Positions 8,524 to 61,720 of a DNA stretch of 64,000 nt are shown here, in pieces. The DNA comes from Octopus vulgaris (Eukaryota): positions 79,422,001-79,486,000 of the forward strand of contig OX597816.1 of the NCBI GenBank assembly GCA_951406725.2. Reading direction: 5' to 3'. Under the pieces are notes generated by a model. It made no database searches. It was not told the origin of the DNA and worked only from the letters and a program-made list of their open reading frames with translations. The position numbers were made by a program, and so were the translations under genes. Every line of letters begins with the position of its first letter. The stretch's first letter is position 1.

Positions 8524-8752
8524 ATGTCAACAATAGTAAATGAAGAAAACATGAAAGATTCTGAAGAAGTGAAAAAAGAAATAAAAAGTAATGTTCTGCA
8601 ACTTTTCGGCAATGACGGTGAACCTATGCGTGTTTATCGATATAAAGGACATAATGTTTTTTATACAGAACTGGCATTGTCAGCATTATCCAAACTAAAT
8701 ACAGTGAAAATTAGACCTGATGATATATTACTATATAGCTATCCTGGAGCAG
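8524..8752 (+). CDS. SULT gene A coding exon 1
   Basis: MSTIVNEE...[16 protein letters not shown]; donor G|GTAAGA, phase 1. Confidence 0.9.
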
Positions 8753-11700
8753 GTAAGATTTTAAAGTGATATAGTGTATCAGCGATTGGATTATGTAATA
8801 ACAAATTTTCTTAAAGCGTAATATGTAATTTGAGGGTAATGTGATTTCTTTTACTAATTTAAAATACAAAGCTAAGTTTAATTTATTTCAATATTGTAAC
8901 CAAAATATTTTTATTAGATATATAATGAAACATATATAAGTATTTAAATGCATTTATGCAAGTACATAATCAAATATAGTTTTAATGATATCCTCGTGTT
9001 GCATTCGGGGCTAGCATTTCTGGGCAGCTGCTGATCAGATGTGTGATATCTCCCGAAAAAATGTGACGTAATTTACATTTTAGGTTGCATCTCTAAATGT
9101 TTAAGTACTGTGTAGCAATATCCTGTTGTTGGATTGTAAATTCTTGGATTGTAAATTGCGTTCGAAGTGTGGTGTGAGGTATCAGTCACGAGTCCAAGAG
9201 AGACTGCACTTTATGTTGATATTACTGCCTGCTGGAAACATACCCAAGAATAATCACTTTTTCGACTGGTTGGTCGGTTGGCTGGTTAGTTGGTTGGTTG
9301 GTATGTATATATGTATGCATGCATGTATGTATGTGTATAAGCATGCATGCAGTACAACCTGTCGAATGGTCAGGCCGTCGACGAGTAAACCGGCTAATCT
9401 ACCGAGCCTGCTTGGTGTGAGAGACTCCTAGTCTTTGCTAAGATATCTCTCTCTATAGGAAAATCCCGAAATATCACCCGTCACATTGTGTAGTTCTTGC
9501 CCATGCTTTTTTCTGGTCTACTTGACTTTTTAGGGAGAGTTTAGCGGTGCTGTGCAAACTGTTATTGACTTGTTGCTGACAGTCGTTGTCTTTAACATCA
9601 AGGATAACATAATTTGTCAGTGATGGTCATACTTGTCTACGAGCTGACAGCTGGCCCCTAACAAAGCGACAAGATTTTTTAGTTAAGAGAGTACTCAGTG
9701 TTTGTAAATATGTGGATGAGTTGGTGCATTGGTAGAACAGTCAATGCACACAATCAAGTGTGTGCATCTATTGAACTAAAGAATCTCAGAAGGAAAATCT
9801 TTGGAATCTCTTTACAAATTACAAATAGATTGGATTTGAAGAACTTGAGTCAGTTTCTTTTGCTATTTCTTCGCAACAAAACAGTATTTCTAGAGTTTTA
9901 TGTAAATTTGTAGGTACATAGCCTAATGTACCTATGATATGTACAAATGTTGCAAATTTTGCATTAGTTCACCATTTGTTGGACTTTTGACCATGTATTC
10001 ACATCTGCTGGGCAGCTGAACTCTGCAACTGTGCGTGGCGTTTGTTCCTTGTCCCACAGAATAATATCACGTCTGTTTGCACGGAATTACTGTTTCTGTT
10101 GGAGTGTTTCTCCAGTATTCTTTATTTTTAAAGGTGTGAATACATTCCAGTTCTAACATGCCCTTGATGTATACGTCAGGCAATCCTTCCTGCCGATGGC
10201 ATGGTAAATAAATTTTGCCACTATATCATGCTCCAGATACAGGAAGTATATCGCAGACATTTTGGGACAACTGCTGAGCGATATGGATGATACCTTCCAC
10301 ACTGCTGCAGCATAACCGACATTTTCTATCACAATGTAGAAGATTGGTCGTGTCTTTGTCTCTCTTGTTTATCATGTGCTTGGTATCTATTTCCTATTTC
10401 TAAATACCAAAGGCATATCACAAATCCAGGAGAGGTTATTTTTCATCTCAATGCTGCTATCCTCTTGATCACGAGATATGTATGTATGTATGTATGTATG
10501 TATGTATGTATGTATGTATGTATGTATGTATGTATGTATGTACGTGCGTATGTATGTACGTACGTACGTACGTATGTATGTATCAAATAGGTGTCTTATA
10601 AAACTATTCCGCACATCCTATAACAGCCATACCAACAATCTAACATACCTCCATCATCAGCTGTTCCACAGATATCACTATGGTTTCGACAGCTATGCAG
10701 CATGTATGTATGCATGCAATTTTATACAATATATATGCTTAAAACCCATTGCAATCTTGCTGGATTGTTTCTCTTTCTTATTCAAGCGAAGGATAGCAGT
10801 TAAATAAATCGATTCCAATAGTATAGTTATCGATTCGTAACTGGAAGCTGACATCAGTGTAATTCTAATGCAAAATATAAAAACATCTGAATAATTATTG
10901 TAGCTTATTTATCGATTGGATTTTATGAATGTGTTAATTTTCTATACTCATAAAATTCGTATAGAACAAACTTATAAATTAAACTCCTGATAGTAAGTGG
11001 TTTCTTATTGTACCAGTGTGTAATCACATTTTTCCTATGAGTACATTTTAATCTCTTGATTACAACTGTAAGTAAAGTAAAGTTCCTTCCCGAGTCATAT
11101 AAACTCAAAAGGCTGGTTTTCTTGGCGTATATATTCTCCACCTGAATGGGACGTCGGTCCGTTGCAGGATTTCTCATTTTTTTGCTAGCTGAGTGGACTG
11201 GAGCAACATGAAATGAAGTGTTTTGCTCAAGATCACACGCGCCCCTCGGTCCAGGAATCGAAATCACAATCTTATGATCACGAATCTAACACGCTGACCA
11301 CTAAGCCACAGCTATAAGTTGTTTAGGATCTTTTCTGTTTGGCTGCCAAGCGAGCAGAGATTGAAAATTGGCAGCTAAACAGAAAAGATCCAAAGTTTAT
11401 GATAAATATTTTACTATTTCACACACATCATTAATAATCATGGTGAGTTTATAATGTAGATGAAAAAGATAGTAAAATACGTGTGTAAAACATTCCCAAC
11501 ATTGAAATAGAACTCACTAACTGTAGATCAATAACTCTTTAATTGTGCACCAGGTACTGTTTCTAATTATTGTACTTGATCCAGGACAGATTTTCCTTTA
11601 TGTCATTTATGCATTATTTATGATTTCAGGATCACATTGGATGTTTGAAGTCGTTAATATGATATTGAAAGAAAATAGTGAAAGAGTACCCATGATAAAA

Positions 11701-60700: not shown

Positions 60701-61720
60701 TACATATCAAGTAAAGTCTATTTTCTCATTTAAATGTTTTTAGATTATATCAGTGGAAGTATATTCTGATCTCATGTTAACTAAGAACGTACTGAATTCA
60801 AAATTCTGAGATTTTCAATGCATTATATCTGAAAATTCATATTTTATTAAACCTTCTTACCTATTATCAGTCACCGCTGTTGTATGCACAGAGATGCTAT
60901 CAATATGACGTTGCAAATATCTATGTTAGATGCACTGATGAAAATATAAAAATATAAATTCCACAAATTCTCTCTATAATTGTCTATAAAATATAACATT
61001 TTGTACTCCCTCCCGCAAAAGTTGCCTAATATATTTTCGTTTTAAACACTGCATTGTCATAATTTAATTTAACATTATGAGCAGAAGGGTTGACTATTCT
61101 TTTGGAAGTTATTACACAAACATAATTTCAATTTATTCCTTTAATTTTTCAGTTCCTTATGGTGATTACTTTAAATATGTTCAGGAAATTTATGCTCTAT
61201 GTAAAGATAACCCAAATGCACGTATCATAACTTACGAAGAAATGAAAGCGGTAATTATCTATTGATATTTCCTTTAATTATGTTAATTTTATTATAATTT
61301 ATTTCGTGTGTTTGTTTCCCGTGCACACAAAAGATATTCAAAGTATAAAGTTTAACTTTTAAATAATTCCGATTGAAAAAGTATAATTACCACATAGAAT
61401 ATACCCCATCACCTGCCTGACCGCAGCTCTGAGCTACTAGAGAGAGTATTAATCAGAGAAATTGTTCTACGCATATAAGAAAAAATTTTATTGTTAAATA
61501 CTGAAAATTTCACAATTTGCCTTCATTATTTCTCTTCAACAGGATATGTCCAAAGCAGTGTCACGTGTTGCTAAATTCTTGGGGAAAACAATTTCTGACC
61601 AACTTACAGAGGGTATTGTTAGTATGTGTTCATTTGATAAAATGAAATCTGAGAAAAAAATGACTGATTCGTATTTACCCAAAGATTTGATCGGAGAAGG
61701 TGGTACTGTCTACCATTCTG
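51541..61720 (+). CDS. Cytosolic sulfotransferase-like gene C (3' partial), join(51541..51751,59470..59787,61153..61250,61543..61720)
   Basis: Four exons paralogous to A and B (211+318+98+178 nt), in frame. Motifs YPAAGSHW, SPRFLNSHL, RNPKAMLVSNY, YEEMKADM, VYHSG. No terminal exon found before 64000. Confidence 0.88.
52870..53290 (-). mobile_element. Penelope-like GIY-YIG endonuclease fragment
   Basis: NVVYNIRC...TYIGETSRSIAERLNEH. Confidence 0.78.
53626..54324 (-). mobile_element. Two adjacent head-to-tail non-autonomous Helitron copies (53626-54022; 54025-54324)
   Basis: Each minus-strand copy starts TCTATATATA and ends CTAG, with hairpin CCCGAGC-AAC-GCCGGG about 10 nt from the end. Confidence 0.8.
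55610..56660 (-). repeat. Two tandem copies of the ~470-570-bp (AAT)n-flanked repeat in gene C intron 1
   Basis: Match to 40641-41113; followed by (ATT)n(ATC)n. Confidence 0.88.
56835..57540 (-). mobile_element. R4/Dong-like LINE 3' fragment, same family as 24185-25055
   Basis: Reverse complement matches 24340-25052, including 3' UTR GTGTTACCTTAGTT...GAAGC.GTGCAAAG. Confidence 0.85.
59470..59787 (+). CDS. SULT gene C coding exon 2
   Basis: Acceptor TTTCAG; GSHWVFEIV...WIEGE; donor G|GTAAGC. Confidence 0.9.
61153..61250 (+). CDS. SULT gene C coding exon 3
   Basis: Acceptor TTTCAG; VPYGDYFKY...YEEMKA; donor GCG|GTAATT. Confidence 0.9.
61543..61720 (+). CDS. SULT gene C coding exon 4
   Basis: Acceptor CAACAG; DMSKAVSRVAKFLG...VYHSG; donor G|GTAATT. 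Confidence 0.9.

Follow-up and report, generated by a model that had tools for sequence, protein, structure and literature searches.

An expressed octopus sulfotransferase family without Lys48, likely made up of non-catalytic, paired small-molecule binders

In active PAPS-dependent cytosolic sulfotransferases (SULTs), residue 48 in the 5'-PSB loop is a Lys or Arg, and an RKGxxGDWK motif is needed in which the side chain of Arg257 contacts the 3'-phosphate (SULT1A1 numbering, except where gene A residues are named). According to the accessible part of PMC5482895, Lys258 of this loop contacts PAP via its main chain, and changing Arabidopsis SOT18 Lys93, the same residue as Lys48, to Ala leaves activity undetectable. 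In SULT1A1, the allosteric paths that lead from PAPS to the dimer interface count K48, R257, D263 and D134 among their most robust nodes (PMC12529757). SULT4A1, a single highly conserved vertebrate gene, has lost Trp53 (to Leu) and carries a short RKG loop, out of register and without Lys258; it was described as inactive, not stabilised by PAP and able to bind catecholamines (accessible text of PMC1847840), and its inactivity has been disputed on the basis of sulfate-dependent yeast phenotypes taken as SULT4A1 activity (PMC11275347, excerpt). SULT7A1 and insect retinol dehydratase are SULT-fold proteins as well and perform non-standard chemistry, neither being a close relative of the proteins described here. 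As far as the accessible part of PMC10939482 goes, SULT7A1 keeps its PAPS-binding signatures and has added Cys234 and His51; the retinol dehydratase structures among our PDB matches contain PAP.

Our analysis of a 64-kb window of the Octopus vulgaris genome, by which we mean the whole stretch of 64,000 nucleotides, concerns three SULT genes, A, B and C, on the plus strand. The initial annotation had proposed that they are intact, and indeed each has five exons, exclusively GT-AG introns and zero internal stops, with gene C finishing just outside the window. Gene A (309 aa) begins with an ATG in exon 1 (8524-8752), which ends in the PSB loop at SYPGAG and has a Gly codon (8746-8748) at the Lys48 position. 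Its exon 2 (11630-11947) encodes SHW, Lys100, His125 (equivalent to the catalytic His108), RNPKA (11836-11850) and a gained Arg157 (11869-11871), exon 3 (15952-16049) the Tyr193 equivalent, exon 4 (16359-16536) the Phe229 equivalent and the HSG that replaces RKG (His codon 16530-16532), and exon 5 (21335-21441) KVDTWK, the dimer motif and the stop. Gene B (312 aa) consists of exon 1 (28741-28975, THPGAG), exon 2 (31916-32233, RNPKA at 32122), exon 3 (33157-33254), exon 4 (33550-33730, HSG at 33724) and exon 5 (37940-38046, dimer motif and stop). In gene C, exons 1 (51541-51751, SYPAAG), 2 (59470-59787, RNPKA at 59676), 3 (61153-61250) and 4 (61543-61720, HSG at 61714) lie within the window, and exon 5 (L001:2549-2655), about 2.5 kb beyond its end, completes a protein of 303 aa. 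A Pfam search matched exon 2 to Sulfotransfer_1 (PF00685) with 52-63 bits against a cut-off of 22. Contigs from two studies connect exons 2-3-4-5 of gene A as modelled (exon 2 to exon 3 in X1, X3 and X7; exon 4 to exon 5 in X1 and X7), and the same motifs occur in named Octopus and Argonauta proteins. On these grounds we rejected a frameshift or mis-splicing artefact.

With the residue register set by alignment to human SULT1A1, 1A2 and 1C2, the PSB loops read SYPGAGSHW (A), THPGAGSHW (B) and SYPAAGSHW (C), with Gly, Gly and Ala in place of Lys48. All three proteins contain RNPKA, with Ala at Asp134, and HSGKVDTWK where RKGxxGDWK is expected, in gene C once exon 5 is included. Neither sequence requirement of an active PAPS-dependent SULT is thus present, and all four of the allosteric nodes K48, R257, D263 and D134 are altered. 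Compared with canonical cytosolic SULTs, to which identity is about 27-30%, the octopus proteins carry Lys48Gly/Ala, Thr51Ser, Asp134Ala, Arg257His, Lys258Ser, Gly262Asp and Asp263Thr, with Arg141 and a modelled N-terminal helix as extras, whereas His108, Arg130, Ser/Thr138, Trp53, Tyr193, Phe229, Gly259 and KxxxTVxxxE are shared. These motifs read as first noted, both the losses and the retained catalytic His, R130 and S/T138, and the dimer motif previously seen in A and B extends to C with exon 5 added. A-to-I editing, raised earlier as a possible means of recoding these sites, could not restore Lys48 (codons GGA/GCA) or Asp134 (GCT/GCC). By codon logic it could make Arg (CGT) from the His codon CAT, and no other letter was found at the His codon in the X1 and X7 contigs, which drop rare variants.

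For comparison we used 116 other full-length representatives, left from 148 ids after removal of 7 that were already known to be cephalopod and of 25 whose length fell outside 250-420 aa. Every one of them has Lys or Arg at position 48, Arg257 occurs in 111 and Asp134 in 110, and joint loss of 48 and 257 occurs in none (0/116). Given this comparison, the motif losses are not a product of chance. The K106N substitution reported with these losses is present; however, it also occurs in 60 of the 116 representatives and in most Lys48-bearing C8 SULTs of the same genome, and we rejected it as a lesion since molluscan SULTs commonly carry it. The same holds for His52, which is background too (85/116).

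The analysis covered 21 related SULT loci found in the O. vulgaris genome, which also holds other PF00685 loci (C7, C10, C23, C19 and others). Fifteen of them form one Lys48-less clade, nine of which are HSG-type, and the six C8 loci keep Lys48, so that putatively active paralogs persist beside the pseudo-enzyme candidates. The clade also occurs in Argonauta and a cuttlefish, orthologs are intact in other octopods, and trees nest the family among molluscan SULTs. Under the LG+G4 model, in a tree with one row misplaced relative to the outgroup, the losses are nested: K48 (20 rows, support 99/97), then K258, G262 and D263 together with the gain of Arg141 (18 rows, 100/97), then D134 (16 rows, 99/98) and finally R257H (11 rows, 100/98). 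This nesting was found with 32 motif columns masked, as a check against circularity. The single loss of Lys48 bears out the earlier proposal that the changes predate the duplications. The canonical cephalopod SULTs (the C8 cluster and Watasenia BBB86724) share N106, H52, K77 and matching exon pieces with A, B and C, but they retain Lys48, RNPRD and RKGxxGDWK and group in a clade of their own. ESM Atlas returned generic sulfotransferase clusters only, and a literature search on octopus and cephalopod SULTs, pseudo-sulfotransferases and family expansion, covering few subscription journals, found no description of this clade. Genes mentioned in the accessible parts of PMC13669787, PMC8976471 and PMC13652810 are other genes or cannot be mapped to it, and the optic-gland "sulfotransferase 1C2" appears without a gene id in the accessible part of 10.1101/340984.

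Pairwise dN/dS among A, B and C is 0.41-0.50, below 1 with p < 1e-4 for each of A/B, A/C and B/C, showing that the three genes are under purifying selection. Together with the splicing of gene A and the occurrence of the family in three Octopus species and Argonauta, this supports the earlier view that the genes stayed intact; pseudogene status was rejected on the open frames, these dN/dS values and the spliced gene A. Across four non-overlapping paralog pairs, pN/pS was 0.02 in the dimer motif, 0.22 in the nucleotide site, 0.83 in the acceptor pocket and 0.51 in the rest, and entropy in the 12 HSG proteins was 0.40 for the nucleotide site, 1.47 for the acceptor pocket and 0.92 for the background, with site residues assigned after the nucleotide and acceptor contacts of SULT1A1 structures. 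The catalytic and adenine-stacking residues His108, Trp53 and Phe229 are invariant in all 12, as is Arg130 of the 3'-PB motif, which has Ser or Thr at 138 and Ala or Ser at Asp134. His257 and Thr263 are likewise fixed (12/12), and Arg occupies position 141 (Arg157 of gene A) in 19/19 inner-clade rows versus 0/38 canonical rows. Since the nucleotide site is tighter than the rest and an Arg was gained clade-wide, loss of nucleotide binding should not be taken as given. The variable acceptor pocket is also typical of active SULT families and does not separate a binder from an enzyme. A constrained nucleotide site (pN/pS 0.22) is unneeded by a pure carrier, the retention of His108 in 12/12 HSG proteins counts against a pseudo-enzyme, and the invariant Lys77 (Lys100 of gene A) and gained Arg141 could support catalysis.

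An AlphaFold2 model (pLDDT 95.1, pTM 0.92) superimposes on SULT1A1 with Z 32.6 and rmsd 2.0 Å over 271 aligned residues, and the fold is shared with human SULT1A1, 1B1, 1C2 and 1E1 (PF00685; Z 32-33, rmsd about 2 Å; Foldseek TM about 0.8). The SULT fold is thus predicted to be intact, with an extra helix at residues 2-21. Together with the Sulfotransfer_1 domain and the dimer motif in A, B and C, this places the proteins in the superfamily. A complex between the gene A ortholog P0001 and the canonical P0189 was predicted with a score of 0.76 versus 0.01 for the best control, with 100% of contacts reproduced between runs, a partner pLDDT of at least 90 and interface residues at 280-290; the score mark is reached by 51/78 solved versus 2/108 mismatched microbial pairs and by 39/65 versus 2/126 eukaryotic pairs. 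Because SULT dimers via KxxxTVxxxE have already been solved, the prediction may simply reproduce those known structures and is not informative on which member pairs with which. Lys282 and Glu287, which occur in 12/12 HSG proteins and in 1 and 2 of 38 canonical rows, respectively, lie opposite each other across the predicted interface, and by inference this pair would favour dimers within the clade.

We consider it about an even chance (roughly 0.5) that A, B, C and their kin are pseudo-enzymes, predicted to pair via the conserved dimer motif, whose ligands are diverse small molecules and, probably, an adenine nucleotide as before. Without Lys48, sulfuryl transfer would lose its activation, and standard catalysis has likely been lost, judging from the motifs. 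An adenine nucleotide such as PAP could still be held as a structural or gating ligand by Trp53, Tyr193, Phe229, Arg130, Ser/Thr138, Gly259, His257 and the gained Arg141. Following duplication, the former acceptor pocket would have diverged between paralogs, each buffering, carrying or sequestering different hydrophobic or phenolic ligands, and the clade-specific Lys282/Glu287 pair may promote dimers between family members. The altered function proposed in the initial annotation is supported in so far as standard catalysis is likely gone, but the nucleotide site is conserved above the rest rather than decaying. Like SULT4A1, the proteins have a SULT fold whose cofactor site is changed, retain the His and the dimer motif, and are maintained by selection. 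They differ from it in keeping Trp53, in having HSG in register with RKG and in the loss of Lys48, so that the diagnostic SULT4A1 features (Trp53 to Leu, short loop without Lys258) are absent; moreover, they form an expanding family with variable pockets instead of one conserved gene. The likeness is probably convergent; 1zd1 ranks 34th of 44 PDB sequence matches, and the trees contained no SULT4A1 row.

As the main alternative, the proteins may be rewired active enzymes in which Lys100, Arg157 and His125 replace Lys48 and Lys258. Such enzymes would still work with PAPS or some other adenine nucleotide, acting on a special acceptor or catalysing a different reaction. We regard this as a tentative, distinctly less probable reading. 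It would explain why His108, Arg130, Ser/Thr138, Trp53, Phe229 and Gly259 are (nearly) invariant and why the replacements at 257, 263 and 141 are fixed rather than drifting, and the C2 gene of Octopus and Argonauta, in which only Lys48 is gone and RKG-GDWK is whole, would be its first step. However, C2 lost Lys48 without having Arg141, so this Arg is no direct swap for Lys48 and arrives with the loss of Lys258; Lys77 is equally found in all but one of the 38 canonical molluscan rows, which keep Lys48, and position 48 itself varies among G, A, T, S and Y in the clade. Altered chemistry on a SULT fold has precedents in retinol dehydratase (PDB matches) and in the C-sulfonation by SULT7A1, but the latter retains its PSB, 3'-PB and P-loop signatures (accessible text of PMC10939482). 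Somewhat more speculatively, cephalopods may have rewired the site stepwise to a Lys48-independent one (His125, Lys100, Arg157, His273) that employs an adenine nucleotide for a new reaction or as a ligand-capture gate, and octopods may have expanded it to at least nine specialists, found in skin mucus and ink, with intermediates of every step alive in the genome.

A main role as regulatory subunits, tuning the level or activity of active C8 SULTs in heterodimers as reported for SULT4A1 with SULT1A1/3, seems unlikely. Constraint is strongest in the dimer motif (1 nonsynonymous versus 14 synonymous differences), the P0001/P0189 complex was predicted, and regulation by SULT4A1 via this motif is stated in the accessible part of PMC12529757; yet that prediction does not discriminate the partner, the Lys282/Glu287 pairing points to dimers within the clade, and nine HSG paralogs with diverging pockets exceed the need of a regulator. 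Still less probable are ordinary slow SULTs whose PAPS-dependent sulfation is lowered and compensated by copy number: the fold, His108 and main-chain phosphate contacts are retained, K106N and T52H are tolerated in molluscan SULTs, and databases name the proteins sulfotransferase 1A2/1C4/1E1-like, by similarity only, but no Lys48-less protein occurs among the 116 representatives, SOT18 Lys93Ala fell below detection (PMC5482895, accessible part), and additional PAPS and allosteric residues are lost in sequence.

Cephalopods made crystallins from glutathione transferases, and a stable fold of enzymatic origin that has multiplied in tandem would suit structural or bulk proteins of this kind. We consider this very improbable, as pocket variation and nucleotide-site constraint are unexpected for a filler and the matches listed for two proteomes show no crystallin-like abundance: one spectrum in skin mucus (PEP 0.029), a peptide from exon 4 that is specific to gene B among 12 models, and one in ink (PEP 0.004), a peptide common to 7 of the 12. 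Functionless, decaying duplicates have a negligible chance, since the relics that exist (paralog M with a frameshifted exon 1, stray exon fragments) and the moderately high dN/dS are set against significant constraint in all three pairs, intact octopod orthologs, twelve open models and the spliced gene A.

The family provides, in one genome, a graded series from canonical SULTs through loss of Lys48 only and loss of the cap motif to loss of Arg257, which is direct test material for the transition from an enzyme to a pseudo-enzyme or new chemistry, and it lets the long-open question of SULT4A1 be approached independently in an invertebrate. Since 15 of the 21 loci of this subfamily are annotated as drug- or steroid-conjugating but are without the key catalytic residue, it may be a mistake to interpret "sulfotransferase 1C/1E" matches in octopus transcriptomes as sulfation of steroids or toxins. 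Overall, octopuses keep and express a Lys48-less SULT family whose members are likely non-catalytic, paired small-molecule binders and not the detoxifying enzymes named in databases.

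Splicing at GT-AG sites gave open frames for all three sulfotransferase (SULT) paralogs, bearing out the initial annotation's view of them as intact genes with clean splice sites. Gene A encodes 309 amino acids and gene B 312, both wholly within the window, and gene C encodes 303 when exon 5 is taken from just past the window end. Mutual identity is 67–68%, and exon 2 of each gene matched Pfam Sulfotransfer_1 above the cut-off, so the family assignment also held. The nearest named proteins come from Octopus sinensis (99% over exon 2), O. bimaculoides, O. vulgaris and Argonauta hians. 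In a gap-free alignment with human SULT1A1, 1A2 and 1C2, the protein ortholog of gene A (P0001) has Gly at Lys48, Ala at Asp134 and HSG at RKG (residues 257–259, SULT1A1 numbering). The proper exon 5 of gene C lies at L001:2549–2655 in a fetched stretch, yet its database protein (P0310) carries an unrelated C-terminus in its place; an inverted exon-5 fragment lies nearby (L001:1828–1899). In every paralog, exon 2 (for example window 31916–32233) comprises 318 bases and is phase-symmetric, and three database proteins (P0016, P0018 and P0019) omit it in frame, which may reflect annotation error or a real isoform. Two copies of the gene A start (8450–8581), 88% identical and in opposite orientations, occur at 1055–1189 and 3478–3612 within a 784-base inverted duplication (468–1251 and 3416–4197); these are exon-1 fragments and no gene. 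Nested inverted repeats of a ~480-base element occupy 40629–42303 and 55610–56679, with a further copy at 23130–23641. Stop-to-stop frames in intergenic or intronic DNA (24167–25006, 38660–39361, 43016–43732 and 49799–50293) look by eye like transposon remnants, namely a retroelement C-terminal part and mariner-like and DDE-type transposases.

Searching the genome with gene A exon 2 identified at least 21 loci, and 40 fetched stretches yielded 12 open models (A–L), nine of HSG type (A, B, C, D, E, G, H, I and L) and three of RSG type (F, J and K); a further RSG-type paralog, M, has a frameshifted exon 1 (L021:2320–2510). Lys48 is absent from 15 of the 21 loci, 21 being a lower bound, and is kept at all six loci of the canonical cluster C8, with RKG at the four that yielded an exon 4. 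Locus C24 reads YPYSGTHW, RNPKD and RTG, the C2 gene (P0173) has YPSSGTHW and an unaltered RKGQVGDWK, and a cuttlefish cluster (P0185; named member Sepia pharaonis) has FPSSGTHW and RSGKxGTWK. Birth-and-death relics include a stray exon 4 containing a stop codon (L005:5761–5940), a duplicated partial exon 4 of gene H (L011:6655–6822) and a C8 exon 2 without the RNPRD stretch (L040:5657–5854). The intron 2 donor of gene H is GC, not GT (exon 1 L010:2283; exon 2 L012:891).

We built one tree from 69 of 93 rows, after setting aside 24 near-duplicate or partial ones, and another from 52 rows in which 32 motif columns were masked (both LG+G4, with thin squid sampling); the two agreed. Every protein without Lys48 falls in a single clade (99/97), and the loss of Lys48 is one change on the tree. 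The node after that (100/97), to which the cuttlefish protein belongs, shows loss of Lys258, Gly262 and Asp263; Asp134 is lost at a node whose named members are octopod only (99/98), and Arg257His marks the clade of the window genes, Argonauta included (100/98). Arg141 (Arg157 in gene A) arises at the second node, occurring in 19 of 19 rows inside, in none of 38 canonical rows selected for Lys48, RKG and Asn106, and not in the C2 pair. Lys at position 77 (gene A Lys100, exon 2, around window position 11815) is present in 37 of these 38 Asn106-type rows and in all clade members, and may replace Lys106 in molluscan SULTs.

Catalysis would have been lost first, and the cap and phosphate contacts afterwards, an order that fits a pseudo-enzyme. 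Over four non-overlapping pairs, pN/pS was 0.02 in the dimer motif (KxxxTVxxxE), 0.22 at 27 positions that we take from SULT1A1 structures to form the nucleotide site, 0.83 at 17 likewise assumed acceptor-pocket positions and 0.51 in the rest; the replacements are fixed and the adenine pocket is constrained, which is consistent with proteins that still bind a nucleotide. We put at about one half the probability that these genes encode dimeric ligand-binding pseudo-enzymes. In Arabidopsis SOT18, the PSB-loop Lys touches the 5′-phosphate and activity of its Ala mutant was undetectable, while the Lys and Gly of RKG bind by main chain (PMC5482895). K48, R257, D263 and D134 of SULT1A1 are among the most robust nodes on the link between the dimer surface and the PAPS site (PMC12529757); all four are changed in the octopus clade, and K265/E274, K133 and R130 are kept. 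A rewired enzyme, which we regard as a tentative second reading, has a precedent in SULT7A1, which shows that the SULT fold can switch chemistry (PMC10939482).

The AlphaFold2 model of P0001 (pLDDT 95.1, pTM 0.92) is closest to PAP-bound SULT1 enzymes. Its predicted complex with a canonical SULT (P0189), formed via the dimer motif, scored 0.76 versus 0.01 for the best control, with 100% contact agreement between runs and partner pLDDT of at least 90; 51 of 78 solved pairs reach the score mark, as do 2 of 108 mismatched ones. Since SULT dimers of this kind are already solved, the prediction shows likeness only. Position 282 is predicted to lie opposite the partner's 287-equivalent, and vice versa; Lys282 and Glu287, present in 12 of 12 HSG rows, would by inference add two extra salt bridges in within-clade dimers. 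Regulation of active SULTs, which would involve the mixed pairing, is doubtful.

From a profile search of 1.84 billion representatives, the best 150 matches included 148 new ids, of which 116 were compared after removal of 7 known cephalopod entries and 25 outside 250–420 amino acids. At position 48, 103 carry Lys and the other 13 Arg; Arg257, Asp134 and Lys258 occur in 111, 110 and 102, and none of these 116 from the best 150 matches has lost both 48 and 257. His52 is found in 85 and Asn106 in 60, so K106N, initially counted with the lesion, is background and falls outside it. The gastropod SULTs P0073 and P0060 lost RKG separately and kept Lys or Arg at 48; they are possibly further pseudo-enzymes or annotation errors. 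No Lys48-less case was seen in the portions consulted of two accounts of active scallop and ostracod SULTs (PMC13603450, 10.1101/2023.04.12.536614). Slow ordinary sulfation appears improbable.

Gene A contigs from sequencing runs X1 and X7 (two studies) have intron 3 spliced out at GT-AG and extend into exon 2 on one side and exon 5 on the other; an X3 contig shows the exon 2–3 join, run X21 gave no matching contig, and X1 and X7 also contain a contig of paralog D/E type. At the His codon, considered for A-to-I editing, these contigs carried no other letter. Among the rows listed in proteome supplements, at least one skin-mucus spectrum matched a gene B-specific peptide (PMC10138644) and at least one ink spectrum a peptide common to 7 of the 12 models (PMC10142993), single-spectrum matches that lend weak support to expression. 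A structural role is very unlikely. Pairwise dN/dS, a comparison proposed in the initial annotation, was 0.50 (A/B), 0.47 (A/C) and 0.41 (B/C), each with p < 1e-4 and not near 1, and other HSG pairs gave 0.24–0.52. Only D/E, whose members are nearly identical, lay outside this range (0.69, not significant). Decay can practically be dismissed.

The octopus proteins are cytosolic SULTs by descent and, judged on their motifs, lack two features that define active SULTs. Pseudo-sulfotransferases are a named class in PMC9539457, which cites a review. SULT4A1 was reported as inactive, not stabilised by PAP and bound by catecholamines (PMC1847840), and yeast data were later interpreted as SULT4A1 activity (PMC11275347). 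The lesions differ from those of SULT4A1, and the octopus proteins are therefore not its members. Our literature search, of incomplete coverage, found no description of a Lys48-less cephalopod clade. The family is real and maintained, apparently undescribed, and by analogy its proteins may work in a SULT4A1-like manner.
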